Positions 3,269 to 20,893 of a stretch of DNA of 64,000 bases are shown piece after piece. Position 1 is the first letter of the stretch, and each line of letters starts with the position of its first letter. The DNA lies in NCBI GenBank assembly GCA_034437215.1, contig DAOTVC010000106.1:30369-94368 (forward strand). Direction: 5' to 3'. Under the pieces are notes generated by a model. It was not told where the DNA came from. It worked only from the letters and a program-made list of their open reading frames with translations, and made no database searches. Both the position numbers and the translations under genes were made by a program. Source of the stretch: Anaerolineae bacterium. GTDB taxonomy: Bacteria > Chloroflexota > Anaerolineae > B4-G1 > SLSP01.

Positions 3269-3447
3269 GAGATTTCCTCCTTATGGAAATAAACGGGTTA
3301 CGACTCATCTATGATGATAGAGGTGGGTCGCAGAAAAGTCAACCTGAAGTTTTCTTGTCTTCCGCACCTACCGTGCTATCATTGGCTTGATCGCTATACC
3401 GCCATCGATGGGGCAGAAGACCTGCCCATCTTTTGAGGAGACTGCTG

Positions 3448-6400
3448 ATGAAACGAAACACCCTTCGTTCACAAGTTTGGATGCTGGCGTTGGTGTTTCT
3501 GCTCGTATTCCAGGCGTGTACCCAGATCCGGAGCCCTCTGGAGACTGCTACTCCCGAGGGTGAAGCGCAGGACGGGCTGATGCCCGACCTCGATCTTCCG
3601 CCTGCCGTGGTGGAGTTCACCCCACGACCCGGTCAGGAGCTGGCGCCCGATGACGTGGTCGTCAAGGTACGCTTCGATCAGGACATGGATCGGGAGAGCG
3701 TTGAAGACGCTCTCAGCTTCTCCCCGCCCCTCGAGGGCGAGGTGAGCTGGCAGAACGAACGGACCCTCGCCTTCCGTCCTCAAGGGCTGGCGGCCGCGAG
3801 CCGCTATCACGTCTCCCTGAGCCCGGAGGCGCAGTCGGCGGAGGGCCGAGCGCTGGGCCAGCCGTTGGCCTTCACCTTCTCCACGGTGGGGCCTCTGCAG
3901 GTGACGCGCGTCAGCCCTGAAGCGGGAGCCGACGATGTGCGGGTCGACGCCCCCCTGTTCATCGCCTTCAATCGTCCCGTCGTGCCCGTCAACTGTACAG
4001 GGGCCGTTGCCGGCAAGATCGACGAATGTCCGGCGCTGTCCCTGTCCTTCACGCCTCCCATCAACGGTGAGGGCTTCTGGATCAACACCTCCCTCTATCG
4101 CTTCACACCGCGTCTCGGCTGGGACGCCGGACGTGTCTACCGGGTGCAGCTGGCGTCGGGGATCAGCAGTATTGTCGGCGCGACCATGGACGACTCGTAC
4201 ACCTGGTCCTTCTCCGCTGCGCTGCCCCGCATCCTGGACGTTCAGCCGTCTTTCAAGGAAGAGGATGTGCCCCTGGAGACCGGGGTCGTGGTGACCTTCA
4301 ATACTCCCATGGACCCCGAGGCGACGGGCAGTGCCTTCTCTCTCGTCTCGGAGGCCGGAGCGCCCGTGCCCGGTGGGCTCACCTGGCGTGACAACGGCGC
4401 CGTCCTCGTCTTCACCCCCACCCAGCAGCTCGACCTGGGGACGCGTTACCTGCTGCGCTTGGGAGAGCGGGCCCGGGCCCTCACGGGGGCGCCCATCGAA
4501 GCGTCCTTGGACTCCTCCTTCACCACGGTTCCCTATCCCGCTCCGGTCTCCATCGTGCCTGCCGACGATACCTCAGGCGTCCCCCTTTACGACTCGGTGC
4601 GTGTGGCCTTTGCCGGCGCTATCAGCCCGACGACGGTGCTGCCCCACGTTGTGGTGACGCCGTCGGTGGCGCAGAACGATCTCTACACTTACTGGAGTGG
4701 GAACATTCTGAACCTCTCCTGGGACAAGGAGCCCCGTACCGAATACTGCGTCCGCATCGCGCCGGGCATTCAGGACCGTTACGGTAACGAGACGACCTCA
4801 TCGCTGGCCGCCTGCTTCACCACCGGTGATCTGCCCCCCGTCTTCGCCCCCGCTACCGGGGGGAATGCGGCAACTCTGGACGCCGCGCAGCCGGCGGAGC
4901 TCTACGTCGTCTCCCGCAATCTGACCCGCGTCTCCCTGAGCCTGTTGTCGATGAGCGAGCGGGCTTTCATAGGTTCTCAAGAAATTGCAGGGGAAGAGGT
5001 GCGGGGTTGGACGGAGTCGTTGGCCGGAGAGCCCAACGAGGCGCGCATCAGTCCGTTGGTCCTCACCCGGCAGGGAGGCCCTTTGCCTACCGGCTACTAC
5101 GGCCTGCGTTGGAGCGCCCCCCAGGATGGCGGCTGGCGTCAGGATTTGAGAATCGCCGTCGTCGACCGGCACGTCACTTTGAAGGTGGCGACGGAGGAGG
5201 CGCTGGTCTGGGTGACGGATTTGCAGAGCGGTGAGCCGGTCGCCGGGGCCGAGGTCCGCCTGCTCGACGAGCAGGGCACGTTGATCGCCGGTGCGACCAC
5301 CGACAGTCAGGGGATTGCGCGTACTCCCATCGAGGCGCGGAAGAATCTCTGGGATCGCGTCGCCGCTGTGGTCGGTAGACCCGGCGAGGAGGGTTTCGGG
5401 GTCGCCCTCACGGGTTGGAACGCCAACGTGACCCCCTGGGAGTTCGGCATCGATGTGGACTACGGAGGGAAGACGCCCTACTATCTCTACCTCTACTCCG
5501 ACCGGCCCATCTACCGCCCCGGTCAGACGGTGCACGTGCGCGGTATTCTGCGGGAGGAGGCGGACGTCCGCTACTCGCTGCCCGATCTGCAGCAGTCTGT
5601 CGAGGTCCGGCTGCGGGACGTGGACTGGAACGTGGTCACGACGAATACTGTCACGCTTTCGGAGATCGGTGGTTTCGATACGGCCTTCGAGCTCTCTCAG
5701 GGAGCCGCTGTGGGGCTCTACGCCGTGGAGGCCCTGGTGCCCGGCGTGGAGCGGGTCTGGCAGCTGCCTTTCGCGGTGGCTGCCTACCGGAAGCCCGAGT
5801 TCGAGGTCAGCATCACCCCCGAGAGGGATGACGTCCTGCAGGGAGAGACCCTGCGTGCGGTCGTCGACGCTCGCTACTACTTCGGCGGACCGGTGAGCAA
5901 TGCCCGGGTGGCGTGGACGGTGCGTGCGGCGCCGTCCGTCTTTGATCCGCCCGTGGAGGGTTGGTGGAGCTGGGGGCCGAGTGGGGGCAGGGTGTTGAGC
6001 CACGAGCCTATCGCCCGTGGTGAGAAGACGACCGATGGTGAGGGACGGGTGCTGTTGGAGATCCCCGCCGAGCTGGTCGAGCCCGAGAACGGTGAGCCGC
6101 CCTCCTCGCAGGAGTGGGAGATCGAGGTCACCGTCACCGATGAGAGCGGTTTCCCGGTGAGCAACCGGGCCCCGGTGACCGTACATGCAACGCGCTTCTA
6201 TCTGGGCCTCCAGCCCCGGGAGTGGGTGGTCCGGGCCGGGGAGAAGACATCCGTCGACCTCATGGCCCTGGACTGGCAGGGGGCGCCCGTCTCCAATCAG
6301 GAGGTGGAGGTCACCCTCGCCCAGCGGGAGTGGTACCGGGAGCGCTCTGCGGAGCCCTTCAGCTCTCCTCGCTGGGCCTACACGGACACCATCGTCTCCA

Positions 6401-9396
6401 CCCTCAACGTCACCACCGGCGGTGATGGGAGCGCTGAGGCGGTGGTGACACCCCCCAGGGGGGGCTCCCACGTGCTGATCGCCCAGACGACGGACGAGGA
6501 CGGGCGCCCGGTACGCACAGAGGTTGCTCTCTGGGTGAGCGGTCCCGATGCGGCTGCCTGGCAGATGGCGCAGGGCGAAATCACGCCGGTGGCGGATGTC
6601 CAGACCTACCGTCCGGGCGATACCGCCTCCATCCTGCTGCCTACGCCCTTCGAGGCGCCCTTTGAGGTGCTCATGACGCTGGAGCGGGGCGGCATTCTCG
6701 AGGTCCGGCAGTTCGAGGCCACCGAGGCTAACCCTATCGTGGAACTTCCCATCACGGCCCGGCACGCTCCGAATATCTACGTCTCTTTTGTAGTGGTCAA
6801 GGGGGCCGTAGGGGAGGAGGGCGGGACGCCCGACGTACGCGTGGGGATGCTGGAGCTGACGGTGGAGCCCGTGGCGCAGACCCTGCAGGTGGAGCTCACT
6901 GCCGATCAGAGCCGCGCCTATCTCCCCGGGGAGGACGTGACCCTTACTGTGCGCACCGTCGACTCCGCCGGTAGAACGGTGGATGCTGAGGTGGGGCTGG
7001 CGGTGGTGGACAAGGCCGTGTTGGCCCTTCAGGAGCCCAATGCACCTGCGATCCTCGACGGCTTCTACAATGAACGTCCCCTGGGCGTGGTCATGGGCGA
7101 TTCCCTGCTCGTCTCTCTGGATCGGATTGCGGAGGAGCTCGAGCAGGATGCCGAGCGGATGGCGGCGGAGCTCTCCATGGGCGGTATCGGTGGCGGTGGC
7201 GGTGGGGACGGTATGGCGATGCTCGGAGAGATCCGGAAGGAGTTCCCCGATACGGCTCTCTGGCGTGCGCAGGTGCGCACCGGTCCCACCGGCGAGACTC
7301 AAGTGACCTTCGAGCTGCCTGACTCGCTGACGACCTGGGTGGCCGATGCCCGGGCCGTGACCGCCGACACGAAGGTGGGCAGCGAGACGCTGGAGTTCGT
7401 CGTCGCCAAGCCGCTCCTTATCCGTCCGGTGACCCCCCGGTTCTTCGTCGCAGGAGATCGACCGGAGGTGGCGGCCGTCGTCCACAACAACACCGGGGAG
7501 GAACTCGACGTGACGGTCTCCCTGGAGGCCCTGGGGGGCGCCGTGGCAGAAGAGTCCGCACAGGTGGTGACGGTGCCCGCCGGGGGCAGGACCCGGGTGA
7601 CCTGGTCCCTTGCCGTCCCGACGGCCGCGACGGGCGAGGTACTGTTGAACTTCTCCGTCGCAGGGGGTGGGTACGAGGACGCCACCCGTCCGACCCTGGG
7701 GCAGCCGCCCGAACAGGCGTTGCCCGTCTACCGTTTCGAGATCCCCGACGTCATGGGGGTGAGCGGGGTGCTGGACGAGGCCGGGAGCCGCATCGAGGCC
7801 ATCGTCGTCCCCCCCGAAGCGGGACCCGACACCGAGCTCCACGTGCGCCTCGAGCCCTCACTCGCCGCCGGTCTGCTCTCGGAACTGACCTACGTCCAGA
7901 ACGCGTCGTACAACACCACCGAGCAGATCGTCAGCCGCTTCCTGCCGAACGTGCTCACCTACGGGGCGCTGCAGAGCCTCGGTGTGGAGAACGTCGCGCT
8001 CGAGGAGAAGTTGGAGCTCGTCGTACGCGACGGGCTGGACCGCCTCTACGGACGCCAGAACGAGGATGGAGGTTGGGGGTGGTGGAGCAACAGCGAGAGC
8101 GATCCTCAGATCAGCGCCTACGTCGCATTGGGGCTGTTGCGGGCGCAGCAAGCCGGCTTCACCGTTCGAGAGGAGGCGCTGGAGCAGACGCTGGCCTATC
8201 TCGTGGAGGTGCTGCGCGCCGAGCTGCAGCGGGAGCCGCGGGCGTGGGCCCAGGAGCACGCCATGGCGCTCTACGTCTTGACCATCGCTGAGGAGACCTG
8301 GCCCAGCGGCGCGGCCGGAGCCCTCTACGCGGCTCGAAATGACCTGGAAGTCACGGGACGGGCCTATCTGGCGCTGGCTTTTGGATTGGCCGACGACACT
8401 GACCGCCGTACGGTGACGTTGCTCGAGGATCTCCGGGCGGAGGCGGAGGTCACCGCTTCGGGCGCTCATTGGGCGGATGCCGATGCGCGTCGTTGGACCA
8501 CCGACGTGCGGGCGACGGCGGTGGTGCTCGATGCGCTGGTGAACCTGGCCCCGGACGACCCTCTCGTGCCCCAGGCGGTTCGCTGGCTGATGACGGCTCG
8601 TCGAGCCGACCGCCGTACGTCGACGCAGGAGGTCGTCTGGACGCTCATCGCGCTCACCGACTTTATGGCGCAGACGGGGGAGTTGGACGCCGACTACGTC
8701 TGGGGGGTGGGGCTGAACGGCGCCGAACTGGGCGAGGGACAGATTACATCCCGGGAGGTCACGGAGGTGGCGGAGTTCGAGGTGCGCCTCGCGGACAATC
8801 CGGCCGGGGGCTTGGTGCGCAGCGTCACGAATGGCCTGGAAGTGTCGCGCGGCGAGGGCGCCGGGCGTCTCTACTACCGCGCCGACCTCTCTCTCTACCG
8901 CTCCGTGGAGGGCGTGGAGGCCGAGAGCCGGGGGATCATCGTCGAACGCAGCTACTGTGCTGTCGGCGGAGGGGCAGGAGAGAGCGAGGAGTGCCGGCCC
9001 ATCTCCATGGCGAGTGCAGGAGATCTGGTAGAGGTACGGCTGACCCTGACCCTTCCGGAGATGCGCCACTACCTGGTCCTTGAGGATCGGTACCCGGCAG
9101 GGATGGAGCCCGTGGATCCGACGCTGCTGACGGAGCAACAGGATCAGCCGGCGCCCGGCATGTTCGAGGTCGCTTCCACGCGTTGGTGGTGGGACCCCTT
9201 CGATCACCGCGAACTGCGGGATGAAAGGGCGCTCTTCTTTGCCCAGGAGCTGGCGGCGGGTACTTATCAGGTCCGCTATCGCCTGCGGGCTGCCATTCCC
9301 GGTGAATACCGTGTCCTGCCCGCCAGGGCCTCGGAGATGTACTTCCCGGAGGTCTGGGGGAGGACGGGCGGTGCTCTCTTCAGCGTGCAACCCTAG
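3448..9396 (+). CDS. Alpha-2-macroglobulin family lipoprotein (MG domains, YfaS-like). The thioester CxEQ motif is absent.
   Basis: About 1,980 aa. Lipoprotein signal with LVFQAC lipobox. Repeated MG-like beta-sandwich segments. GGWGWW and ...ASYNTTEQIV... stand where a CLEQ thioester would normally be. GAGGAG RBS 8 nt upstream of the ATG at 3448; the track start at 3433 is a TTG. Confidence 0.7.
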   Translation: MKRNTLRSQVWMLALVFLLVFQACTQIRSPLETATPEGEAQDGLMPDLDLPPAVVEFTPRPGQELAPDDVVVKVRFDQDMDRESVEDALSFSPPLEGEVSWQNERTLAFRPQGLAAASRYHVSLSPEAQSAEGRALGQPLAFTFSTVGPLQVTRVSPEAGADDVRVDAPLFIAFNRPVVPVNCTGAVAGKIDECPALSLSFTPPINGEGFWINTSLYRFTPRLGWDAGRVYRVQLASGISSIVGATMDDSYTWSFSAALPRILDVQPSFKEEDVPLETGVVVTFNTPMDPEATGSAFSLVSEAGAPVPGGLTWRDNGAVLVFTPTQQLDLGTRYLLRLGERARALTGAPIEASLDSSFTTVPYPAPVSIVPADDTSGVPLYDSVRVAFAGAISPTTVLPHVVVTPSVAQNDLYTYWSGNILNLSWDKEPRTEYCVRIAPGIQDRYGNETTSSLAACFTTGDLPPVFAPATGGNAATLDAAQPAELYVVSRNLTRVSLSLLSMSERAFIGSQEIAGEEVRGWTESLAGEPNEARISPLVLTRQGGPLPTGYYGLRWSAPQDGGWRQDLRIAVVDRHVTLKVATEEALVWVTDLQSGEPVAGAEVRLLDEQGTLIAGATTDSQGIARTPIEARKNLWDRVAAVVGRPGEEGFGVALTGWNANVTPWEFGIDVDYGGKTPYYLYLYSDRPIYRPGQTVHVRGILREEADVRYSLPDLQQSVEVRLRDVDWNVVTTNTVTLSEIGGFDTAFELSQGAAVGLYAVEALVPGVERVWQLPFAVAAYRKPEFEVSITPERDDVLQGETLRAVVDARYYFGGPVSNARVAWTVRAAPSVFDPPVEGWWSWGPSGGRVLSHEPIARGEKTTDGEGRVLLEIPAELVEPENGEPPSSQEWEIEVTVTDESGFPVSNRAPVTVHATRFYLGLQPREWVVRAGEKTSVDLMALDWQGAPVSNQEVEVTLAQREWYRERSAEPFSSPRWAYTDTIVSTLNVTTGGDGSAEAVVTPPRGGSHVLIAQTTDEDGRPVRTEVALWVSGPDAAAWQMAQGEITPVADVQTYRPGDTASILLPTPFEAPFEVLMTLERGGILEVRQFEATEANPIVELPITARHAPNIYVSFVVVKGAVGEEGGTPDVRVGMLELTVEPVAQTLQVELTADQSRAYLPGEDVTLTVRTVDSAGRTVDAEVGLAVVDKAVLALQEPNAPAILDGFYNERPLGVVMGDSLLVSLDRIAEELEQDAERMAAELSMGGIGGGGGGDGMAMLGEIRKEFPDTALWRAQVRTGPTGETQVTFELPDSLTTWVADARAVTADTKVGSETLEFVVAKPLLIRPVTPRFFVAGDRPEVAAVVHNNTGEELDVTVSLEALGGAVAEESAQVVTVPAGGRTRVTWSLAVPTAATGEVLLNFSVAGGGYEDATRPTLGQPPEQALPVYRFEIPDVMGVSGVLDEAGSRIEAIVVPPEAGPDTELHVRLEPSLAAGLLSELTYVQNASYNTTEQIVSRFLPNVLTYGALQSLGVENVALEEKLELVVRDGLDRLYGRQNEDGGWGWWSNSESDPQISAYVALGLLRAQQAGFTVREEALEQTLAYLVEVLRAELQREPRAWAQEHAMALYVLTIAEETWPSGAAGALYAARNDLEVTGRAYLALAFGLADDTDRRTVTLLEDLRAEAEVTASGAHWADADARRWTTDVRATAVVLDALVNLAPDDPLVPQAVRWLMTARRADRRTSTQEVVWTLIALTDFMAQTGELDADYVWGVGLNGAELGEGQITSREVTEVAEFEVRLADNPAGGLVRSVTNGLEVSRGEGAGRLYYRADLSLYRSVEGVEAESRGIIVERSYCAVGGGAGESEECRPISMASAGDLVEVRLTLTLPEMRHYLVLEDRYPAGMEPVDPTLLTEQQDQPAPGMFEVASTRWWWDPFDHRELRDERALFFAQELAAGTYQVRYRLRAAIPGEYRVLPARASEMYFPEVWGRTGGALFSVQP

Positions 9397-9428: not shown

Positions 9429-9457
9429 TTGACTTTTCGAAGTGGCTCTGCTATAGT
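9429..9457 (+). promoter_or_regulatory. Sigma70-like promoter: TTGACT, 17 bp spacer, TATAGT
   Basis: Read directly: ttgacttttcgaagtggctctgctatagt, about 40 nt upstream of the 9496 CDS. Confidence 0.4.
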
Positions 9458-9495
9458 GAAAAGGTCTTGTTTATTACAACGGGGGAGGAGTTCAT

Positions 9496-10044
9496 ATGTC
9501 GGATATTAAACCTGAAGTCGAGCGCTCTGTTACAGAAGAGGTACAGATCAGCCGTCGTCGTCTGTTGAAGGCTCTGGCTGCCGCCGGGGGGGCCGTCGCG
9601 GTCTCCAGCATGTTGCCCAAGAACTGGGAGCAGCCGGTGGTCGAGGGTGGGGTGCTTCCCGCTCACGCTCAGGTCTCGGAAGAGCCGGTGCAATACATTA
9701 TTCGCTGTGACTCTGTCCCCGGTGGGGGGGACATTCTACTCGATAGCGACTATATCGGTCTTCTGGCAGACGTGACGGCTACGGTGGAGGTGTACCAGGG
9801 CAGCGGCCCCGTCGCAGATATCGACGTGACGATGGAGTGCTCGACACCCGAGTGGCCGCAGTTCAATCCATCCCTGCCCCAGGTGGCGACTACGGGCAGT
9901 TCGGGCGTCGCCAGTTTCGGTGATTTCGAGATCACGGGGGAGGGGGGCGAGAGCTTCTTACTGGAGTTTGCCGCCGTCGACCCGGTCAACGGCACGCCCC
10001 TCACTTGTACCTGCGGTGTCTTCCGCCTGGTACAACCGCAGTAG
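9496..10044 (+). CDS. Tat-signal secreted hypothetical protein
   Basis: Twin-arginine motif SRRRLLKALAAAGGAVAVSS. GGGGGAGGAG RBS. No recognizable catalytic motifs. Confidence 0.5.
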   Translation: MSDIKPEVERSVTEEVQISRRRLLKALAAAGGAVAVSSMLPKNWEQPVVEGGVLPAHAQVSEEPVQYIIRCDSVPGGGDILLDSDYIGLLADVTATVEVYQGSGPVADIDVTMECSTPEWPQFNPSLPQVATTGSSGVASFGDFEITGEGGESFLLEFAAVDPVNGTPLTCTCGVFRLVQPQ

Positions 10045-10115
10045 CCAATTCCTGCATAGCCAACGACGGCGCCCTCAGGGCGCCGTCGTTCTGTTATCAA
10101 TCGGTCGCAATCGCT

Positions 10116-11237
10116 TCAGTACTCCGCTTCGGGACGGACCATGCCCTCCATGTCCACGCTCACCTGCTCCGAGAGGTTCTCGAGACTGTCGAAGAGGAGC
10201 TGGAGCACGTACCGGGCGTTGTGGGTGTAGGATCCGGGGTCTTCGTGCTCGTAGTGGTAGTTATAGGCAGCCTTGACCAGGCGCGGGGTCCAGCTCTGGT
10301 AGCGGTTGGGGAAGGCGGCCTCGCCCTCGTCGACCTCCCCGTTGCCGTTGGTGTCGGTGAAGAAGTAGGGGAAGGAGTCGGCGTAGATGATGGGGGTGCC
10401 GATCACCTCCGCGGCGTAGGTCTGGATGGCGGTGTAGAGCGCCTCGTGAAGGGTCTCGATCTCCTGGGCGATGCCCTCCTCGGCGTTGCCGTCACCGTCG
10501 TAGTCCACTCCGGGCTCTTCGCGGATCTCCGCCAGGTCACCGTAATTGACCACGTTGGAGTGACAGGCAGCGCAGGCGTCGGGATCGAGCGCCGTGCTGT
10601 GGGGATCGTGGCACTCGATGCAGGTATCGTACTGCTCGGTGTGGGGGTAGCGCCCCACGTACTCTCGACCCTCGTACTGGTAACCGACCTGCACCCGATC
10701 ACCCATCAGCGTAGCGGCGGCGATGGCGTAGTGCACGTTGATGAAGCCCAGTTCTTCGGAGACCGTGTCGAGCGGGAAGCCGGCGACGGCCTCGTTGACG
10801 CCTTGCGTCGACTGGCGCCCCTGGTGGCAGTCCATGCAGACCGCCGACTCCGTCAGCCCCTCGACCTCCACGCCGGAGGGGAAGACGACCGTGGTCTTCT
10901 CGTCGGCGGCCTCGTTGTGGCAGGTGAGGCAGGAGACGACGGAGCCCACCCGGGCGGCTTCATCCACCACACCGGCCGCCGTGCCATCGGCGCCCACGTA
11001 GTCGAGGTAACCGTAAAGACTGTGGCACTTGGCACAGTTGGTGGGAATTTCGGGCGGCTCGTCCTCGTCCCAATGGACGAAGGATTCGGAATCCCAATCT
11101 GAGTGCCCGGCCCGGTTCCACTTGGCGGTCACCGCTTCTACCGGTTCGCTGCGTAAGGTGAACCAGTAGAGGCCCCCGATGATGAGCATGCCGATCATGA
11201 TGCCGATAAGGATGAGGGGTAAAAGTTTGAGGTTCAT
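10116..11237 (-). CDS. Membrane-anchored pentaheme c-type cytochrome
   Basis: Five CxxCH motifs: CAKCH, CLTCH, CMDCH, CIECH, CAACH. N-terminal TM anchor MNLKLLPLILIGIMIGMLIIGGLYWF. Confidence 0.75.
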   Translation of the reverse strand: MNLKLLPLILIGIMIGMLIIGGLYWFTLRSEPVEAVTAKWNRAGHSDWDSESFVHWDEDEPPEIPTNCAKCHSLYGYLDYVGADGTAAGVVDEAARVGSVVSCLTCHNEAADEKTTVVFPSGVEVEGLTESAVCMDCHQGRQSTQGVNEAVAGFPLDTVSEELGFINVHYAIAAATLMGDRVQVGYQYEGREYVGRYPHTEQYDTCIECHDPHSTALDPDACAACHSNVVNYGDLAEIREEPGVDYDGDGNAEEGIAQEIETLHEALYTAIQTYAAEVIGTPIIYADSFPYFFTDTNGNGEVDEGEAAFPNRYQSWTPRLVKAAYNYHYEHEDPGSYTHNARYVLQLLFDSLENLSEQVSVDMEGMVRPEAEY

Positions 11238-11368
11238 GGTCTCTCCTTTCGTGTTGTGATCCTGTTGTAGTTGCCTGTGTGACGCTGAACGTCCCCCCTA
11301 GCACTATGGTTATTCATCTCTCATTATAGGGGAAAAGAGGATACGCGCAAATCTCTTTTCTCTCTCCG

Positions 11369-11397
11369 TTGACAGGGTCGGCACCTCTATGTATAAT
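11369..11397 (+). promoter_or_regulatory. Consensus sigma70 promoter: TTGACA, 17 bp spacer, TATAAT
   Basis: Read directly: ttgacagggtcggcacctctatgtataat, about 65 nt upstream of the 11461 start, in the divergent region shared with the cytochrome gene. Confidence 0.5.
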
Positions 11398-11460
11398 TTT
11401 TATAACGAAAACGTGTTTAATCACAGACACGTCCTCGCAATTCACGAAGGAGGGTTTTGG

Positions 11461-12795
11461 ATGAAGTCTCGACACAAGGCTGTATTCTGGATCGTTGTCT
11501 ATATGTTTTTGGTGCTCTCGCCCTTTATCATTCTCTTCCTGGCTCCTCGCCCGCCGGGTCGGGAGTTTCTCAGGGAACTGGGTGTGGCCTTCGGCTTCGT
11601 AGGTATCTCGTTGATGGGTATCCAGTTCATTCCCACAGCGCGGCTCCCCTTCCTCGCCGATCTCTTTCCCATGGATACGCTCTACGAGTTTCACCATAAA
11701 CTCTCGTTGTTGGCTTTTGGCTTCACGTTGGCGCATCCGCTGTTGCTGTTGCTCAACAACGTGTACGTCATCAATCTTTTTAATCTCTTTACCGCCCCGG
11801 CTCGGGCCCAGGCCGGCGTCCTGGCTGTGCTGGCACTCATCGTCCTGGTCTTGACCTCGGCGCGGCGTGTGAGTCTCGGACTGGACTACGATGTGTGGCA
11901 TATCTTGCACTTCCTGCTCACCTTGGTCATTATCGGTTTCGGACTCTATCACATGCTCGCCGTCAACTACTATACCTCCGTGCCGGCCCAGCGGGTCCTG
12001 TGGCTCCTGATGGGCGTGTTGTGGGTGGGCATGATCCTCTATACCCGGGTGGTGCACCCCATCATCCTGCTCCGGCGGCCCTACGAGGTCGTGGAGGTCA
12101 CCGAAGAGCGGGCGAATTCTTGGTCCATCCTGCTGGCGCCCCGCGGGCATTCCGGCTTCGAGTTCCGGGCAGGGCAGGTGGCGTGGCTCAAGTTCTGGCG
12201 ATCGCCCTTCTCCCCCCTGGATCATCCCTTCTCCATTGCCACGAGTGAGGAGCGTCAGGAGCACGTCGGATTCCTGATCAAGGAGCTGGGGGACCTCACC
12301 TCCCGGATGGGGGAGTTGGAGGTAGGGCAGACGGTCTACGTTGACGGGCCCTACGGGACCTTTGATCTCGAAGACTGGCGAGATTCCCCCAACGTCTACA
12401 TCGCGGGCGGGATTGGGCTCGCGCCTATCGCCAGCATGTTGCGCACCCTGGCCGACCGGAAAGATGAGCGACCGTTGATTCTCTTCTACGGGAACCCTAC
12501 CTGGGAATCGGTCATCCTGCGGGAGGAGATTGAGGCGCTCCAGGAGCAGCTGAATATGAAGGTCGTGCACATTCTGGAGCGACCGCCGGAGGGATGGGAG
12601 GGAGAAACCGGTTTCATCCGCGAGGAGATTCTGGAGCGCCACATTGATTTCGATTGTAGCGAGTGTAGCTTCTTTGCCTGCGGTCCCCTGCCCATGTTGG
12701 ATGCGGTGGTGGACGCGCTGGAGTCCATGGACGTGCCCGGGGAGCGCTTCAATCGCATGCGCCAGCTCCACATGGAAGAGTACGAGATGGCCTAA
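11461..12795 (+). CDS. NOX/ferric-reductase-like flavocytochrome: a six-TM bis-heme ferric reductase domain fused to an FAD/NAD(P)-binding FNR-like domain
   Basis: His pairs in TM helices (FHHKLS..AHP; WHILHF..YHMLA). HPFSI FAD motif. GGIGLAPI NAD(P) motif. AGGAGG RBS before the MKSRHK start; the track start at 11389 is probably too long. Confidence 0.7.
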   Translation: MKSRHKAVFWIVVYMFLVLSPFIILFLAPRPPGREFLRELGVAFGFVGISLMGIQFIPTARLPFLADLFPMDTLYEFHHKLSLLAFGFTLAHPLLLLLNNVYVINLFNLFTAPARAQAGVLAVLALIVLVLTSARRVSLGLDYDVWHILHFLLTLVIIGFGLYHMLAVNYYTSVPAQRVLWLLMGVLWVGMILYTRVVHPIILLRRPYEVVEVTEERANSWSILLAPRGHSGFEFRAGQVAWLKFWRSPFSPLDHPFSIATSEERQEHVGFLIKELGDLTSRMGELEVGQTVYVDGPYGTFDLEDWRDSPNVYIAGGIGLAPIASMLRTLADRKDERPLILFYGNPTWESVILREEIEALQEQLNMKVVHILERPPEGWEGETGFIREEILERHIDFDCSECSFFACGPLPMLDAVVDALESMDVPGERFNRMRQLHMEEYEMA

Positions 12796-12828
12796 TTCGG
12801 CCACCGGAGGAGGGAAAAGATGGAAAAG

Positions 12829-12921
12829 ATCGTTGCGCAACGGTTGTTGATTGCTACTGTAGTGCTGACGTTGGGACTGTCACTGCTCTTCGCGGCATTA
12901 CAGGCCTTCTAATCGGTTCGT
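12829..12921 (+). CDS. Small 30 aa hydrophobic single-TM peptide (MEKIVAQRLLIATVVLTLGLSLLFAALQAF)
   Basis: Below the track length cutoff. GGAGGAGGG RBS 6-8 nt upstream of the ATG. Lies 33 nt downstream of the flavocytochrome stop. No homology claim made. Confidence 0.3.
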
Positions 12922-13038
12922 TCGGTTGCGCTCAGTGCGAGCGTCCCGAGAGAGCCCTGCGGGTAGAGCTACCTGCGGGGCTCTTCGCTCTTGCTTTCAG
13001 GGAGGTGAGGATGGACGGGCCCGTTGTTCTGGGTGTCA

Positions 13039-13884
13039 ATGCCTGGCCCCGCCGGTGCGAGACCTGCCTCGCAGGGGCGTAGCGAGGAGCGGGCCATCGT
13101 TCACTTCGGCAGGATTGAGCGTGTCGACTACGCTGGGCCTCTCTGGGAGGTGGAGGGCATTCACCCCCGCCTCAAGGTTCACCTGGCGGCCCGCGACCGC
13201 CTCGTCGTGTTGGCTCACGGATCGCCGCCCTACGCCGTCGTCCTGGGTGTGCCCCACCACTCCGCCGTCGGGCACGGGCAGCTCTGCGAGAGGCGTCTCG
13301 ACCGCGAGGGACGGCCCAATCCCCGGGTCTCCGACGAGGCCACGGCCCCCTACGCGTTGGTCGCTTTGGAGGCCCTGCGGCGGGAGGGCGTGCCCGCCCG
13401 GCTCGTGGTCATGGCTCACGCCACCACCCACGATCCTAACAAGCACGCCCGGAGCCCCTACACCTGCGCTCTCTTCGAAGAGCCCGTCGCTCTCCTCTTC
13501 GAGTGCCACGGGTCGGGGCCCCGCCGCGCCCTCCCGCTGGAGCTGAGCGCGGGGAACAATCCCCTCGCCGACCCCCTGCGCTGCGGGCGGGCGCTGGCGG
13601 AGACGTTGGAGCGCCGCTACGCCCTGGGCGTACAGCGGGAACCGGGGACCCGGGAGGCCCTCATCTTCCACCCCGACGGCTCAGAGATGCCGGGCCGGCT
13701 ACAACTCTCGGCGCGCCGCACCCTCTCCCTCGTGGAGGCAGGACGCCTGGGTATCCAGGCCCTGCACCTCGAGGCCAAGCCGCGCTTCCGCACCCCCCGC
13801 GGCAGCGAGTTGGGCCTGACGCCGGAGGGGCGCTTTCTCGGTCAGGCCATCGCCCGTGCCCTCGTGCGGTATCTTGATGGATAA
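13039..13884 (+). CDS. Hypothetical protein, possibly a zinc-hydrolase-like fold; function unknown
   Basis: High-GC3 frame, preferred over the overlapping 12926..13546 frame. His-rich motifs HGSPPY, GVPHHS, HATTHD, ECHGSG. The start is ambiguous: ATG 13039 or TTG 13024. Confidence 0.35.
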   Translation: MPGPAGARPASQGRSEERAIVHFGRIERVDYAGPLWEVEGIHPRLKVHLAARDRLVVLAHGSPPYAVVLGVPHHSAVGHGQLCERRLDREGRPNPRVSDEATAPYALVALEALRREGVPARLVVMAHATTHDPNKHARSPYTCALFEEPVALLFECHGSGPRRALPLELSAGNNPLADPLRCGRALAETLERRYALGVQREPGTREALIFHPDGSEMPGRLQLSARRTLSLVEAGRLGIQALHLEAKPRFRTPRGSELGLTPEGRFLGQAIARALVRYLDG

Positions 13885-13937: not shown

Positions 13938-13966
13938 TTCAACAAATTGGCTTCCCGCGTTATAAT
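13938..13966 (+). promoter_or_regulatory. Sigma70-like promoter (TTCAAC, 17 bp spacer, TATAAT) for the ccm operon
   Basis: Read directly: ttcaacaaattggcttcccgcgttataat, about 30 nt upstream of ccmE. The -10 lies in the loop of a CCCGC/GCGGG inverted repeat. Confidence 0.4.
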
Positions 13967-13994
13967 AGGCGGGTTGCGCCTGAGAAGGAGGGTT

Positions 13995-14480
13995 ATGCGA
14001 AACAAGGGCACGTTCATGGTCGCCGGTCTGCTCGTCGTCGTCGCCGTCGTCTACCTGATGGTGACGAGCACCGGCAGCACCGCCCGCTACTTCCTCACCA
14101 TCGAGGAGCTGCAGGCGTTGGGGTCGGAGGCGCAGGAGCGGCAGGTGACCGTCTCCGGCGCCGTCCTGGGGGAGAGCATCGACTATGACGCCTCCCGGCC
14201 TCACCTGACCTTCACCATCGTCCAGGTCCCCGCCGATCCCCGGGAGGTGGAGGCGGCGGGCGGCCTCGCCACCGTTTTGCGGGAGGCGGTCAACGATCCC
14301 GACGCCCCCCGGCTGCGGGTGGTCTACGAGGGCATCCGGCCCGAGGCGCTGCAGCACGAGCGCCAGGCCATCGTGCGCGGGCGGCTGACGGAGGAGGGGG
14401 CCTTCCTCGCCGAGGAGCTCCTGCTCAAGTGCCCTTCGCGCTACGAGGCGGCGCCCGCGGAGGGCGAGCCGGGCGGATGA
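13995..14480 (+). CDS. ccmE: Cytochrome c maturation heme chaperone CcmE, CxxxY variant
   Basis: N-terminal TM then an OB-fold-like domain. C-terminal LLLKCPSRYE places Cys where the heme-binding His of canonical HxxxY CcmE sits. GAAGGAGGG RBS. Stop overlaps the ccmF start in an ATGA. Confidence 0.55.
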   Translation: MRNKGTFMVAGLLVVVAVVYLMVTSTGSTARYFLTIEELQALGSEAQERQVTVSGAVLGESIDYDASRPHLTFTIVQVPADPREVEAAGGLATVLREAVNDPDAPRLRVVYEGIRPEALQHERQAIVRGRLTEEGAFLAEELLLKCPSRYEAAPAEGEPGG

Positions 14481-16945
14481 CGGGCGAGGTCGGGACGCTG
14501 CTCGTCGGGCTGGGATTGCTCTCGGCCCTCTACACCGCCGGCGCGACCCTGGTGGGGCTCCACCGGGAGGACGAGCGGTGGCTCGCCAGCGGCAGGAATG
14601 CCGTCGTGGCGACCTCCGTCCTGCTGGGCGGCGCCCTGCTTGCCCTGCTGGTTGCCTTCCTCACCGGCAACTTCTCCCTCGCCTACGTTGCCGACCACGG
14701 CTCCCGCGCCCTGCCCCTCTACCTCAAGGTCTCGGCCCTTTGGGCCGGGCAGGAGGGCTCTCTCCTGCTCTGGAGCTGGATGCAGGCCCTCTTCGCGGTG
14801 CTCACCCTCCATCTCTCGGGGCGCAAGGCCCTGCCTCTCCTGCCCTGGGTGACCGTCTTCCTCGCGCTCATCACGGCCTTCTTCACCGGCGTGACGCTGC
14901 TGACCTCCAACCCCTTCGTGCTTCGGACTCCCGTCCCGCCCGACGGGTTGGGTTTGAACCCCCTGTTGCGTCATCCGGGCATGATCCTGCACCCGCCGGC
15001 GCTCTACGTCGGCTACGTCGGCCTCGCCGTCCCCTTCGCCTTCGCCCTGGCGGCCCTCGTGCGCGGGCGGCTGGCGGCGTGGACGAGGGCCGCGCGCGGC
15101 TGGATCCTCGTCGCCTGGCTGGGGCTGAGCCTGGGCCTGCTGCTGGGGATGCGCTGGGCTTACGACGTCCTGGGGTGGGGCGGCTACTGGGGCTGGGATC
15201 CCGTGGAGAACGCGGGGCTCATGCCCTGGTTCACCGCCACGGCCCTCCTGCACGGTCTCGTCATGCAGGGGGAGCGCCGGGGCTTCCGCCTCTGGAACCT
15301 GCTCCTGGCGATCTTCTCCTTCGCCCTCGTCCTCTTCGGGACCTTCGCCACGCGGAGCGGCGTCATCCAGTCGGTGCACGCCTACGCCCGCTCCGACGTC
15401 GGAACCTACTACGCCGGGGCCATCGTCGTCACCCTCCTCCTCTCCGCCGCCCTGCTGGTCTGGCGCCGGGGTCATCTCCAGGCCGATGGCGAGGGCGAGG
15501 GGCTGCTCTCGCGCGAGGGGCTCTTCTTCCTCACCTTCTTGCTCTTCGTGACGCTCACCGTCTCCGTCTTCGTGGGGAGCACGCTGCCCACGCTCACCGA
15601 GCTCTTCGGCGGGCAGCGCTTCGAGGCAGGGCCGGCGTGGTTCGACCGGGTGACGGGTCCCCAGTTCGCCCTGCTCGTGCTCCTGCTGGGGATCTGTCCG
15701 CTGCTGGGGCGCTCCGCCGCCCTGCTGCGCGCCCGGCGCGGGTGGCGCTGGTCGATCCCGGCGGGGGCGCTTCTCGCCGTGGTGCTGGCGATCTTTGCCG
15801 GTTTCACCCGGCCCCTCTCCCTGATCGGCTTCGGGATCGTGGGGCTGGCGGGGACGACGGCCCTCGTCGAGATCGGCGCGGGCGTCGCTGCCCGTGCCCG
15901 CCGCACCGAGGACGCCCCCCTCAACGCCCTCTGGCACCTCCTGCGCACCCAGCGGCGCAGGTACGGCGGCTACCTCGTCCACCTGGGCGTCGTGCTCATG
16001 GCTCTGGGCGTCATCGGCACGCGCCTCTACGCCCTGGAGGAGGACGTGGTCCTCACCTCGGGCGTCGGTCGGCTGGTGGGCGGCTACACCTTCGTCTACC
16101 AGGAGCTGCGCCAGGAGACGGCACCGGATCGGACTACCCTCTGGGCCGAGGTGGACGTGCGGGAGGCGGGTGACTACCGGGCTACCCTGACGCCCCGCCT
16201 GATTCGCTACACGGGCTACCGGGAGTCCGTGGCCGTCCCCGCCGTGCGCACGGGGTTGCGAGAGGATCTCTACCTCGTCCTCTCCAGCTGGGACGAGGGC
16301 GGGAGGACGGTGACCCTCAGCGTGACTGTCAATCCGCTGATCAATTTTCTCTGGCTGGGAGGACTGCTCTTGATAGCCGGTGGCGCCTTCGCCCTCTGGC
16401 CCCGCACTACCCGCTGGGAGGGCCTGGTCGCCGGGGTGCTGCTCCTCCTCCTCATCGGCGCCGGCTGGGCGATGTGGGGGGCGCCCCACGGGAACCTCCG
16501 GCGGGTCAACCCGCGGCCCACCGTGGGGGAGCCCGCGCCCGACTTCCGCCTCCGGCTCCTCGACGGCACGACCTTCTCCCTCGCCGAGCAGCGGGGGGAG
16601 GTGGTCGTTGTCAATCTCTGGACCTCCTGGTGCGAGCCCTGCCGGGAGGAGCTGCCCGATCTGCAGGCGCTCTGGGAGGTCTACGGGGAGCGGGGCGTCC
16701 GCTTCGTCGGCGTGGCCCACCAGGACGAGCCGGAGGGGGTGCGGGATGCCGTCGCCGACTACGGGCTCACCTATCCCGTGGGCCTCGACGAGGGGCAGCG
16801 GATCGCTGACGCCTACGGGATCACGGGTGTGCCCGAGACCTTCGTCGTCGCCCCCGACGGGCGCGTGGCCTACGTTCACGTCGGCCCGGTGACGGCGGAG
16901 GTGCTGGCGGCAGAGCTGGATGCACTTCTGGAGGAGGCCCCATGA
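14477..16945 (+). CDS. ccmF: CcmF heme lyase fused to a C-terminal TlpA/ResA/CcmG-like thioredoxin domain
   Basis: WWD motif GWGGYWGWDPVENAG and many TM helices over about 650 aa. The C-terminal roughly 170 aa carries a WCEPC thioredoxin motif (VNLWTSWCEPCREELPDLQ). Confidence 0.75.
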   Translation: MTGEVGTLLVGLGLLSALYTAGATLVGLHREDERWLASGRNAVVATSVLLGGALLALLVAFLTGNFSLAYVADHGSRALPLYLKVSALWAGQEGSLLLWSWMQALFAVLTLHLSGRKALPLLPWVTVFLALITAFFTGVTLLTSNPFVLRTPVPPDGLGLNPLLRHPGMILHPPALYVGYVGLAVPFAFALAALVRGRLAAWTRAARGWILVAWLGLSLGLLLGMRWAYDVLGWGGYWGWDPVENAGLMPWFTATALLHGLVMQGERRGFRLWNLLLAIFSFALVLFGTFATRSGVIQSVHAYARSDVGTYYAGAIVVTLLLSAALLVWRRGHLQADGEGEGLLSREGLFFLTFLLFVTLTVSVFVGSTLPTLTELFGGQRFEAGPAWFDRVTGPQFALLVLLLGICPLLGRSAALLRARRGWRWSIPAGALLAVVLAIFAGFTRPLSLIGFGIVGLAGTTALVEIGAGVAARARRTEDAPLNALWHLLRTQRRRYGGYLVHLGVVLMALGVIGTRLYALEEDVVLTSGVGRLVGGYTFVYQELRQETAPDRTTLWAEVDVREAGDYRATLTPRLIRYTGYRESVAVPAVRTGLREDLYLVLSSWDEGGRTVTLSVTVNPLINFLWLGGLLLIAGGAFALWPRTTRWEGLVAGVLLLLLIGAGWAMWGAPHGNLRRVNPRPTVGEPAPDFRLRLLDGTTFSLAEQRGEVVVVNLWTSWCEPCREELPDLQALWEVYGERGVRFVGVAHQDEPEGVRDAVADYGLTYPVGLDEGQRIADAYGITGVPETFVVAPDGRVAYVHVGPVTAEVLAAELDALLEEAP

Positions 16946-17196
16946 GTCTGGCCGCGTTGTTGGTGGGTTTGGGGTTGGTGGTGCTCTGGGGTGTCTACGT
17001 CACCCGCCCCTTCCGCCGTCCCTCGTTGGATGAGCAGATCGAGGTCTGGGTGGCGGAGGTTGACGTGCAGGCTCGCGCCGTGCCCCAGGAGGAGGCGCCC
17101 ACGGTCAGCGCCTGCCCTGCCTGCGGTCGCCCCCTCCGCGAGGACTACAGCTTCTGCCCCGGCTGTGGTACACCTTTGAGGGAGGAGGCGTCATGA
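16942..17196 (+). CDS. Small membrane protein with a C-terminal zinc ribbon (CPACG...CPGCG)
   Basis: Translationally coupled by ATGA overlap with ccmF upstream and the 17193 gene downstream. One TM helix, then a CxxC...CxxC ribbon. Confidence 0.5.
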   Translation: MSLAALLVGLGLVVLWGVYVTRPFRRPSLDEQIEVWVAEVDVQARAVPQEEAPTVSACPACGRPLREDYSFCPGCGTPLREEAS

Positions 17197-18020
17197 GGCT
17201 GCGCGCTCTCCTTGTATGCGCCTTAATAGCCCTGTTGCTCCTGACCGGCACGGCGCGCGCACAGGCGCCGGTCACCATCGAACAGGCCCACCTCTTCATC
17301 CGCTTCGCGGAAGATCGGCTGGAGGTGCAGGAGTTTCACTTGCTGAGCAACGCCGGCGAGGAGCCCTACACGGGTGGGGTGGACCCCGACCTGGGCGTGC
17401 CCATCACGGCTCTCTTTGAGCTGCCGCCCGGCGCCGCGGACCTGAGGTTCGCCGACCCGGCGGCGGGGGAGCGTTTTGTCCTCGCACCGGAGGGCTTTGC
17501 CGATACCCTCCCCATCCCCCCCGGCGAGTCCACGGCCGAGGTGCGCTTCACCTACGCGCTCCCTTACCGTCCCGGCGAGCCCTTCTCCCGCACCTTTTCC
17601 CTGCCGGTGGGGGCCGTCGTCGTCGTGCTCCCCGCCGGGGAGCTGGAGCCGGTGGGCGAGGTACTTGCCTATCAGGGGGAGATGCCCGGTGAGGGGCTGA
17701 ACGTCGACGTCTACGTCGCCGGATCGCTGGCGGCGGGGGAGGCGCTGACCCTCTCCCTCGTCCCCCCGGAAGCGGTGACGCCTGCTCGTCCCCCCGCCGA
17801 GGTGGGGCTGGGCGCGGCGCTCCTGGGGCTCTGCCTGCTGGCGTCCCTCTGGCTCTGGCTCTGGCGTCCCTCTCCGACCGCACCCCCCGAGTCGGTCCGG
17901 CCCCTCCTGGCGGAGGTGGCGGCGCTGGATGCCCGCTTCGAGGCGGGGGCGCTGGCGGAGGAGGTCTACCGGCGGGAGCGGGCGGCGCTGAAGGCGGAGG
18001 TGCGCTCCCGGTGCCTCTGA
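17193..18020 (+). CDS. Secreted or membrane-anchored hypothetical protein embedded in the ccm operon
   Basis: Signal peptide MRLRALLVCALIALLLLTGTARAQA. C-terminal TM followed by a charged helical tail. ATGA-coupled to its neighbours. No CxxC motif. Confidence 0.5.
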   Translation: MRLRALLVCALIALLLLTGTARAQAPVTIEQAHLFIRFAEDRLEVQEFHLLSNAGEEPYTGGVDPDLGVPITALFELPPGAADLRFADPAAGERFVLAPEGFADTLPIPPGESTAEVRFTYALPYRPGEPFSRTFSLPVGAVVVVLPAGELEPVGEVLAYQGEMPGEGLNVDVYVAGSLAAGEALTLSLVPPEAVTPARPPAEVGLGAALLGLCLLASLWLWLWRPSPTAPPESVRPLLAEVAALDARFEAGALAEEVYRRERAALKAEVRSRCL

Positions 18021-19474: not shown

Positions 19475-19483
19475 GGAATTAGA

Positions 19484-20170
19484 ATGAAAAACGAGAGAGG
19501 GTTCGGGCCCGTCCTCATCGCCCTGGCGGCGGTCGCCTTTCTGGCGGCCCTGGGCATGGTCTTCTACTACGCGCCCCGCGAGGCGACGATGGGGGAGGTG
19601 CAGCGCATCTTCTACTTCCACGTGGCCTCGGCGTGGGTGGGCTTCTTCGGCTTCTTCGTCACCTTCGTGGGGAGCGCGGGCTACCTCCTGAGCGGGCGGC
19701 GCCCGTGGGACGTCCTGGCTCTCTCCTCGGCAGAGGTGGGGCTAGTCTTCATCACCATGACGCTGCTCACCGGCATGCTCTGGGCGCGCCCCGTCTGGGG
19801 CACCTACTGGACCTGGGAGCCGCGCCTGACCATCTCGGCGGTGCAGTGGCTCATCTACGTGGCCTACGTCATGGTGCGGGGTTCCGTGGAGAGCCGGGAG
19901 CGGAGCGCGCGCTTCGCCGCCGTCTACGGCATCGCCGCCTTCGTCACCGTCCCCCTCTCCTGGTTCGCCATACGCTGGTGGCGGACCATCCACCCGCAGA
20001 TCATCGGCGGCGGGGAGATGGCCCTCACCCCGCAGATGCTCCACACCCTCTTCGCCTCCATCGGCGCCTTCACCCTCCTCTACGCCGCCTTCCTCCTCTA
20101 CCGCGTGCGCCTGGAGCGCGCCCGGGACCGCTTGGCGGCGCTGCGGGGGCGGCGGGGTCGTCGGGGATGA
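19484..20170 (+). CDS. ccmC: Heme exporter protein CcmC
   Basis: Trp-rich WWD motif WGTYWTWEPRLT. Multi-TM. Confidence 0.75.
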   Translation: MKNERGFGPVLIALAAVAFLAALGMVFYYAPREATMGEVQRIFYFHVASAWVGFFGFFVTFVGSAGYLLSGRRPWDVLALSSAEVGLVFITMTLLTGMLWARPVWGTYWTWEPRLTISAVQWLIYVAYVMVRGSVESRERSARFAAVYGIAAFVTVPLSWFAIRWWRTIHPQIIGGGEMALTPQMLHTLFASIGAFTLLYAAFLLYRVRLERARDRLAALRGRRGRRG

Positions 20171-20676: not shown

Positions 20677-20893
20677 CTTGCCCTAGACTTTGCTGTGTCC
20701 CTCATTCTCAGTAGATGTTGTGAGCAGTAGTCCTTTCCCGTCACTCCACCGGTTAACCCCTCCACGTCGGAACAGAGGTCGCGTGCCGCCGCCTTGCCGT
20801 CTCTCAATTTTCAAATAAACTTAGGGAGCAAATCGCAAGGGCGGTCGAGGAAAAGCGACCATCCTCCCTGACCAAAATCTCAATCACTGCCGA

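Follow-up and report, generated by a model that had tools for sequence, protein, structure and literature searches.

The stretch of DNA analysed here, called the window, is 64 kb of a metagenome-assembled genome (MAG) of Anaerolineales (Chloroflexota) with a G+C content of 59–72%. It carries a gene for a flavocytochrome that resembles the NAD(P)H oxidases (NOX) beside a gene for a multiheme cytochrome c, and the question that this locus raises is to which acceptor such a flavocytochrome delivers its electrons. On balance, the flavocytochrome (nox), its neighbouring pentaheme cytochrome (cyt5) and a small membrane peptide (pep30) probably constitute one quinone-independent transmembrane module that exports electrons from NAD(P)H to an extracellular acceptor and acts as a redox sink. 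The three genes are the following:

10116–11237, minus strand: cyt5, membrane-anchored pentaheme cytochrome c of 373 amino acids (open reading frame, CxxCH motifs, Pfam, orthologues)
11461–12795, plus strand: nox, NOX-like flavocytochrome of 444 amino acids (Pfam, orthologue alignment, SpNOX profile match, AlphaFold2 model, Foldseek)
12820–12912, plus strand: pep30, single-pass membrane peptide of 30 amino acids, MEKIVAQRLLIATVVLTLGLSLLFAALQAF (homologues after nox, codon-position differences)

A previous reading of the sequence alone had described this locus as a dedicated transmembrane electron-transfer module, in which a membrane pentaheme cytochrome c is transcribed divergently from a NOX/ferric-reductase-like flavocytochrome that has a perfect consensus promoter and is followed by a 30-residue transmembrane peptide. 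Each of these structural elements is present, and the idea of a dedicated module is supported by the conservation of the pairing in three different gene orders.

Conservation of the gene pair

A scan of one genome per species yielded 569 relatives of the flavocytochrome. The best 80 of these 569 loci, all of them from Anaerolineae, were analysed; counts over 80 refer to these related loci and counts over 81 include the window as well. The MAGs that harbour this clade are labelled Anaerolineales, Anaerolineaceae or Brevefilum, several of them having isolate names of the digester or sediment style. A cyt5 orthologue (47–64% identity) adjoins nox in 67 of the 80 loci, which are 67 of the 72 loci whose flanks are long enough to be informative about this neighbour. 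The pair is present in eight loci labelled Brevefilum. The reciprocal check, starting from the cyt5 orthologues, recovered the same pairing.

The arrangement of the two genes varies. The divergent order of the window is found in 36 loci, cyt5 is located downstream of nox in convergent orientation in 20, and in the remaining 11 both genes are co-directional, cyt5 preceding nox, in most cases with a gap of 19–34 nt. The convergent order corresponds to a single nox clade and the co-directional order appears in several separate nox clusters. The existence of three orders, one of them in separate clusters, indicates that the link between cyt5 and nox has survived repeated rearrangement. The distance matrices of the two proteins are also correlated (Mantel r 0.845, with 0 of 999 permutations reaching this value). 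In two loci (L083 and L084) ccmE, ccmF and a ccmA-ccmB fusion come directly after cyt5 and in its orientation, nox and a 33-residue open reading frame (ORF) being divergent.

Clustering of ORFs from the 80 loci revealed synteny only within lineages, involving genes such as those for peptidase/LysM-like lipoproteins and prolyl-tRNA synthetase, none of which indicates an acceptor. Three loci (L047, L065 and L078) show a Brevefilum-type synteny in which nox and the peptide are kept and cyt5, which normally follows downstream, is missing; its place is taken in L047 and L078 by two small unrelated genes.

The flavocytochrome

The nox product is identical (100%, same length) to the NCBI protein P0001, from an Anaerolineales MAG. 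It matches the Pfam families Ferric_reduct (PF01794; 53.9 bits, cut-off 28; residues 68–183 of the long ORF), FAD_binding_8 (26.7 bits, cut-off 22) and NAD_binding_1 (83.2 bits, cut-off 22). The sequence-only reading had proposed a NOX/FRE-type protein in which a bis-heme domain of six transmembrane (TM) helices precedes a dehydrogenase domain similar to FNR, and had named Ferric_reduct, FAD_binding_8 and NAD_binding_6 as the profiles to be searched. The architecture is confirmed by Pfam, by invariant histidines, by the structural model and by a full-length match to SpNOX, the structurally solved NOX homologue of Streptococcus pneumoniae discussed below, and both the FAD and the NAD motifs are recognised by profiles. 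However, NAD_binding_6 found no match in nox and NAD_binding_1 took its place, so that the NAD domain is, judging from its profile matches, of the generic FNR type and not of the NOX-specific one. None of the NCBIfam models describes nox at the family level; the C-terminal half shows only sub-threshold matches to FNR-type reductases (MmoC, BenC, Fre, NqrF).

The six TM helices occupy residues 3–205 and are followed by the FNR-like dehydrogenase domain (approximately residues 206–444), which is predicted to be cytoplasmic. The AlphaFold2 model (pLDDT 84.3, pTM 0.80) shows the six TM helices, then a beta-barrel and a Rossmann domain. In an alignment of 29 orthologues (52–66% identity) the histidines predicted to bind heme are invariant: H78, H79 and H92, located in the helix 71–99 (predicted TM3), and H150 and H164, located in the helix 143–168 (TM5). 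The pairs therefore map to TM helices, as had been anticipated, and their spacings (H78/H79-X13/X12-H92 and H150-X13-H164) agree with the His-X12/14-His criterion used for bacterial NOX proteins, so that heme binding is predicted. Given its positively charged N-terminus and a dehydrogenase domain placed after TM6, the protein has the NOX topology, with NAD(P)H and FAD inside and the H92/H164 heme near the outer face. Each of the three outer loops has a net charge of +1; conserved residues in the outer loops are R30, P31, R34, R38, E39, N100, N108 and Q177.

Other motifs invariant in the alignment are HPFS (255–258), GGxGxxP (316–322, GGIGLAP in the window) and CGP (407–409). A C-terminal aromatic residue, Y441, within the ending E-x-Y-x-M-A, is nearly invariant. 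The motif H[PSA]F[TS][LIMV], used as FAD filter in the 2017 census of bacterial NOX proteins (Hajjar et al. 2017), is matched in the window by HPFSI (255–259) and by only seven of the 29 aligned sequences, the others having F or Y at the last position. The NOX-type NADPH motif is not matched in nox, which carries GIGLAP at this site, most orthologues having GIGSAP. Because the NADPH motif fails and most orthologues deviate in the FAD motif, the nox clade would have largely escaped that census.

The closest soluble relatives of the dehydrogenase domain (cytochrome b5 reductase, methane monooxygenase reductase and NqrF) use NADH, and there is a conserved acidic residue after the second strand of the NAD domain (GNPxWE). 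Read in the light of nucleotide specificity in the FNR family, both features hint at a preference of nox for NADH.

Among solved structures, the only full-length relatives of nox are those of SpNOX (8qq7, 8qt6, 8qta). The E value is 1.6e-17 for the single sequence and 5e-28 for the profile of the 29 orthologues (8qt6/8qq7). A Foldseek search with the model placed SpNOX first (8qt6, 8qq7, 8qta; E 6e-18, TM-score 0.73/0.80), followed by human NOX2, NOX5 and DUOX1.

The pentaheme cytochrome

cyt5, named polyheme membrane-associated cytochrome C by NCBI (MFP4343217.1), contains exactly five CxxCH motifs (C68, C103, C134, C206 and C222) and a single N-terminal hydrophobic signal-anchor helix (residues 5–23). 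It is the only ORF bearing CxxCH motifs in the whole window. It must be extracytoplasmic, since it has a signal anchor and requires the Ccm system for the attachment of its hemes. An alignment of 32 orthologues (56–87% identity) shows, besides the five CxxCH motifs, exactly five further invariant histidines (H45, H169, H199, H213 and H339). Because their number equals that of the motifs, all five hemes are probably bis-histidinyl and of the electron-transfer type, and no open catalytic heme is evident from the count of invariant histidines in these orthologues. Several CxxCH motifs with one distal histidine per heme are characteristic of multiheme cytochromes of the c3/c7 class.

The ectodomain (residues 29–373, approximately) is strongly acidic (pI 4.25; 63 Asp and Glu against 16 Lys and Arg). 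The charge complementarity between this ectodomain and the positive outer loops of nox is weak and no more than suggestive. The C-terminal third (residues 240–360, approximately) is heme-free, helical and modelled with pLDDT values of 88–98, the mean for the whole AlphaFold2 model being 69.6. This domain holds two conserved loops rich in Asp and Gly, DYDGDGNAEEGI (residues 245–256) and DTNGNGEVDEGE (residues 295–306), encoded around positions 10320–10505 of the window, whose motifs DYDGDG and DTNGNG look like DxDxDG calcium-binding loops.

In Pfam, cyt5 matches Cytochrome_C7 (40.7 bits, cut-off 24.8), and this match is restricted to residues 98–144; MtrC-MtrF_II-IV remained below threshold (21.7 bits, cut-off 30), as did the NCBIfam models HmcA (28.5 bits, cut-off 400), OmcA/MtrC (22.3, cut-off 209) and nanowire_3heme (17.6, cut-off 40). 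The best relative of solved structure is a nine-heme cytochrome c (E 6e-4), through a local match of the c3 type only. Foldseek returned no match between the cyt5 model, whose heme region is unreliable, and solved structures. An assignment of cyt5 to NrfB, MtrC, OmcS or any other characterised family is thus not supported by sequence or fold searches.

Paralogues of about 600–650 residues with ten CxxCH motifs are tandem duplicates of the whole cyt5 module (42–51% identity). They are encoded, for instance, in L081 (1676–7956, a Caldilineaceae MAG) and L082 (6001–12422, a Chloroflexi HGW MAG), and also in other Chloroflexota. In L081 and L082 they cluster with a diheme cytochrome b of the Ni_hydr_CYTB family (PF01292) and two further multiheme cytochromes, and these clusters look like quinol-fed extracytoplasmic conduits. 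Therefore, the cyt5-type module neighbours a membrane b-type cytochrome elsewhere too.

The small membrane peptide

pep30 has a hydrophobic core at residues 9–27, and its family follows the pattern M-x-x-I-[YH]-A-x-R-L-L-...-F-[AG]-x-[LI]-Q-[GA]-G. In 56 of the 81 loci, including some that lack cyt5, nox is followed at a distance of 0–126 nt by a homologue on its own strand. Two groups of peptides were compared by codon position, each made up of unique sequences of a single length. At positions 1, 2 and 3 the sequences differ pairwise by 0.43, 0.23 and 0.63 per site in the 33-residue group and by 0.41, 0.14 and 0.60 in the 34-residue group. This pattern indicates purifying selection on a protein, and the pep30 ORF is therefore a gene. 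Neither Pfam nor NCBIfam has a match for it, and public protein sets hold it only unnamed or as "hypothetical protein".

Promoters and translation starts

The signals detected around the three genes are:

11369–11397, plus strand: sigma-70-type promoter of nox and pep30, TTGACA-17-TATAAT (sequence match)
11323–11351, minus strand: putative cyt5 promoter, −10 box TATAAT (11328–11323), weak −35 box TTTGCG (11351–11346), spacer of 17 nt (best minus-strand match of the intergenic region, 9 of 12 positions)
11447–11453, plus strand: Shine-Dalgarno sequence of nox, AAGGAGG (7 nt before ATG 11461)
12806–12814, plus strand: ribosome-binding site of pep30, GGAGGAGGG (direct reading of the sequence)

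The perfect promoter noticed from the sequence is unique: it is the sole match to TTGACA-17-TATAAT in the window even when one mismatch is allowed, 0.01 being expected by chance. The same reading had placed the start of nox at ATG 11389. This codon must be discarded because it falls within the −10 hexamer of the consensus promoter, and translation starts instead at ATG 11461, which is preceded by the Shine-Dalgarno sequence and yields the 444 residues of P0001. The promoter ends about 63 nt before this start codon, which implies a leader of about 57 nt. An Rfam scan of the window detected only a tRNA-Val, and no known riboswitch or other RNA family in the nox leader.

In many orthologous loci the nox side carries TTGCC[ACG] or TTGACC-16/17-TATA[CA]T, typically about 45–90 nt before the start codon, and the cyt5 side of the divergent loci shows a recurrent TTGAG[TC]-16/17-TATACT. 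Since promoter-like motifs are present on both sides in these loci, two back-to-back promoters are likely to exist between cyt5 and nox.

A proposed route for electron export

The following route is proposed. Cytoplasmic NAD(P)H, and most likely NADH according to the sequence neighbours, would be oxidised by the FNR-like domain of nox. The electrons would then pass from FAD to the inner b heme (H78/H79 with H150) and on to the outer b heme, which H92 and H164 would hold close to the extracytoplasmic side. The exposed outer heme would reduce the membrane-anchored, acidic cyt5, whose five hemes could form a wire leading to an external acceptor; candidates for the latter are Fe(III) or humic-type compounds, soluble shuttles, or a syntrophic partner. 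pep30 may be a small third, single-pass subunit of the flavocytochrome. What the sequences and models show is how nox and cyt5 are built, the fold and topology of nox, the conserved linkage of the genes and the fact that pep30 is coding; the physical interaction between nox and cyt5, the direction and rate of electron transfer, the preferred nucleotide, the heme potentials, the part played by pep30 and the final acceptor are inferred.

Electron export of the NOX type is electrogenic and pumps no protons, and for this reason a role as redox sink is proposed. The pathway would regenerate NAD+ in fermentative Anaerolineae, unlike an energy-conserving respiratory chain. Candidatus Brevefilum is a strict anaerobic fermenter that has been reported to lack electron-transport-chain complexes and to possess a lone polyheme cytochrome c, and for which direct interspecies electron transfer (DIET) has been speculated (PMC5481317). 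This published cytochrome would be an orthologue of cyt5. A wider proposal, put forward only tentatively, is that the module is the missing electron-export route of abundant fermentative Anaerolineae, Brevefilum and similar digester organisms included. It would then be a three-subunit quinone-independent NADH:extracellular-acceptor oxidoreductase serving Fe(III)/humic reduction or DIET, a partner cytochrome and not O2 being the ancestral/physiological acceptor of bacterial NOX homologues.

If so, a natural protein partner would be named for the bacterial NOX homologues, and the way in which a lone polyheme cytochrome c is fed in organisms devoid of electron-transport-chain complexes, such as Ca. 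Brevefilum (PMC5481317), would be explained. The module also supplies candidate molecules for a process often invoked for Anaerolineae of anaerobic digesters and sediments, namely electron transfer to the outside of the cell or to other species. Genetic linkage of a NOX homologue with one particular extracytoplasmic multiheme cytochrome across a whole bacterial class means that the question of the acceptor can be tested with two or three recombinant proteins. In addition, the locus contributes a conserved, unannotated micropeptide and, in the pentaheme module, a structurally uncharacterised unit of which other Chloroflexota have a decaheme tandem version.

Several observations weigh against electron export through cyt5. 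The connection between cyt5 and nox rests on gene adjacency, which does not prove electron transfer. No adjacent cyt5 is found in 13 loci; in eight of these the flank on one or both sides is shorter than 1 kb, but the other five (L047, L065, L067, L075 and L078) have at least 4.5 kb on both flanks and keep nox and the peptide, so that the flavocytochrome can also occur without cyt5 as its neighbour. In 25 of the 81 loci no peptide homologue was found. The heme domain of cyt5 is poorly modelled (AlphaFold2 pLDDT below 50 at residues 28–108). Finally, the conserved neighbours in the 80 loci include neither a terminal reductase nor an iron transporter nor any other gene related to an acceptor, and for this reason the acceptor named above is a guess.

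Alternative functions

Five other explanations were considered, each of them less well supported than electron export. The first makes nox a genuine NAD(P)H oxidase whose outer heme reduces O2, either to produce superoxide or as the oxygen defence of an anaerobe, cyt5 being an accessory protein that acts, for example, on O2 or H2O2. SpNOX, the characterised protein closest to nox, transfers electrons from NADPH to O2 (PMC5676040, PMC11564096), and nox has the fold of the NOX catalytic core. However, the clade occurs in the MAGs labelled as listed above, several of them with names of the digester or sediment style, and Ca. Brevefilum, as mentioned, is a strict anaerobic fermenter. A dedicated and conserved pentaheme partner would be unnecessary for O2 reduction, all five c hemes are apparently bis-histidinyl, and both the NOX-specific NADPH motif and NAD_binding_6 are unmatched. 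The authors of the SpNOX study themselves doubt that O2 is the physiological acceptor (PMC11564096). This function is thus unlikely, and among the three roles initially suggested for the module (metal reduction, production of reactive oxygen species and extracellular electron transfer) the production of reactive oxygen species looks the least likely.

To a similar degree it is improbable that the pair is an assimilatory ferric reductase, which would reduce extracellular Fe(III) chelates for iron uptake, and not as a dissimilatory sink, in the manner of FRE/STEAP proteins or as proposed for some MsrQ-like/VIT1 clusters. nox is a member of the Ferric_reduct superfamily, a surface multiheme cytochrome could reduce Fe(III), and some bacterial clusters encoding ferric reductase domain (FRD) proteins are linked to iron transporters (PMC8238504). 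On the other hand, there is no Fe(II) or siderophore transporter and no Fur-type element among the conserved neighbours or among the scanned genes of the window (1442–22693), and the ferric reductase efficiency of SpNOX is very low (PMC11564096). The perfect-consensus promoter also suggests strong constitutive expression rather than repression by iron.

It is still less probable that nox and cyt5 are not functionally coupled, being neighbours by shared ancestry and each working alone. A degree of synteny is expected because the 80 loci all belong to a single class, and the five loci that keep nox without cyt5 are in agreement with independence. Nevertheless, the rest of the neighbourhood of the window is not conserved: the gene for a twin-arginine (TAT) signal protein, an ORF of 286 residues and the alpha-2-macroglobulin gene recur in 0 of the 80 loci, and ccmE in eight. 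The pair has moreover outlasted two or more types of rearrangement, of which one is seen repeatedly, in separate clusters, and the short gaps of most co-directional loci are operon-like.

A role in cytochrome c biogenesis, in which nox would supply Ccm with transmembrane reducing power for heme or apocytochrome thiols and cyt5 would be a mere client, is very unlikely. The ccm genes adjoin the module in the window and in eight further loci, and L083 and L084 show the cyt5-ccmE-ccmF-ccmA-ccmB run; but adjacency to ccm in 9 of 81 loci contrasts with adjacency to cyt5 in 67 of 80, and the ccm operon has its own thioredoxin-like domain, fused to CcmF. To our knowledge, no FRD protein has a role in System I. 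Least credible of all is the reverse operation, in which cyt5 would take electrons from an external donor and pass them inward to NAD(P)+: the cofactor chain is reversible in principle and multiheme cytochromes mediate electron uptake in some organisms, but with most donors such transfer would be energetically unfavourable and would have to oppose the membrane potential, and we know of no protein of the NOX/FRD family that works inward.

Comparison with known systems

The combination nox-cyt5-pep30 appears to be undescribed, its components belonging to known superfamilies (FRD-FNR flavocytochromes and multiheme c cytochromes). No description of the nox-cyt5 pairing was found in the literature covered, which left out most subscription journals, and the NCBI product name of cyt5 led only to a Geobacter paper.

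The best full-length match of nox in sequence and fold, SpNOX, shares with it the six-TM ferric reductase domain, the two bis-histidinyl b hemes on TM3 and TM5 (predicted in the case of nox), the fused cytoplasmic FAD/NAD(P)H dehydrogenase, the short outer loops and the lack of regulatory domains. The two proteins are only about 19–20% identical, nox is linked to a multiheme cytochrome c and a micropeptide, and its hosts are largely anaerobes. We know of no multiheme cytochrome c or micropeptide linked to SpNOX. With respect to SpNOX and the bacterial NOX proteins in general (Hajjar et al. 2017), nox differs in failing the NADPH motif and in matching NAD_binding_1 instead of NAD_binding_6. In vitro, and also under anoxic conditions, SpNOX passes electrons straight from its exposed outer heme to cytochrome c; the authors of that study called the physiological role of the bacterial homologues unknown and suggested a protein as possible acceptor (PMC11564096).

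Proteins called MsrQ-like, composed of an FRD and an NAD-binding domain, are paired in Actinobacteria with extracytosolic flavinylated carriers, and cytochromes and flavinylated proteins have been described as interchangeable modules (PMC8238504). These systems (Meheust et al. 2021) resemble the one presented here in the fusion of PF01794 to PF00175 and in the proposed flow of electrons from cytosolic NAD(P)H to an extracytosolic carrier encoded by an adjacent gene. However, the carrier of nox is a Ccm-matured pentaheme cytochrome c and not a flavinylated FMN-binding protein, and the hosts are Anaerolineae instead of mainly Actinobacteria. No ApbE or FMN_bind gene is present among the scanned window genes.

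The MsrPQ system of E. coli (MsrQ/YedZ and MsrP, with Fre as a separate flavin reductase) is similar in that an FRD heme-b protein has an exposed cleft at its outer heme, where a specific periplasmic partner receives the electrons. MsrQ, however, is not fused to a dehydrogenase domain and works with a molybdoenzyme; the scanned genes of the window include none that resembles MsrP or has an MsrP-like domain. Conduits of the CbcL/Ni_hydr_CYTB type also place a cyt5-type module, in the form of the decaheme duplicates, beside a membrane diheme b protein. In these conduits the latter is a cytochrome b of the PF01292 family that presumably takes its electrons from quinol, and more multiheme proteins are encoded with it, whereas nox is a self-contained NAD(P)H-oxidising protein with a single pentaheme partner. 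The scanned window genes include no PF01292 diheme cytochrome b.

A functional parallel is the flavin-based extracellular electron transfer of Listeria (Ndh2, EetA/B, PplA), by which a monoderm fermenter exports electrons derived from NADH to external acceptors as a redox sink. The proteins involved are unrelated to those described here, and the Listeria route uses quinone and a flavinylated lipoprotein, while the route proposed for nox would be quinone-free and employ hemes throughout.

The ccm operon and other genes of the window

Downstream of the module the window contains the genes of a cytochrome c maturation system:

13947–20170, plus strand: System I ccm operon encoding CcmE, a CcmF-thioredoxin fusion, an unknown protein of 275 residues, a CcmA-CcmB fusion and CcmC (Pfam)

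This operon probably matures cyt5; in eight related loci ccmE adjoins cyt5. The sequence-only reading had located the module directly upstream of ccm. The two are indeed close, but not immediate neighbours, since an unrelated ORF of 286 residues (13024–13884, plus strand) lies before ccmE, which begins at 13947. This ORF has a G+C content at third codon positions of 0.85, no Pfam or NCBIfam match and no counterpart in the 80 loci.

Two genes of the operon are fusions. One encodes CcmF with a C-terminal thioredoxin/Redoxin domain similar to CcmG (14429–16945) and the other an ABC ATPase, CcmA, joined to CcmB (18011–19474), a fusion also seen in L083 and L084. The 275-residue ORF inside the operon (17193–18020, plus strand) has an N-terminus similar to a signal peptide and no Pfam match; it may be a divergent component of the CcmH/CcmI type. 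The operon is followed by the tRNA-Val gene (anticodon TAC; 20603–20677, plus strand) and by a gene for a 7TM-PAS histidine kinase (20894–22693, plus strand).

On the other side of the module, a bacterial alpha-2-macroglobulin of 1987 residues with Big_5, MG2, bait-region, A2M, TED and bMG10 domains is encoded at 3433–9396 (plus strand), two genes from cyt5. Between them there is an ORF of 182 residues (9429–10044, plus strand) that has a twin-arginine signal and no other domain, is not conserved beside the module, and is preceded by a promoter-like sequence, TTGACT-17-TATAGT, with a TG extension. Long antisense ORFs, such as 11314–12840 (minus strand) and 10005–11102 (plus strand), are typical of high-GC DNA and were set aside because the family matches sit on the sense ORFs.

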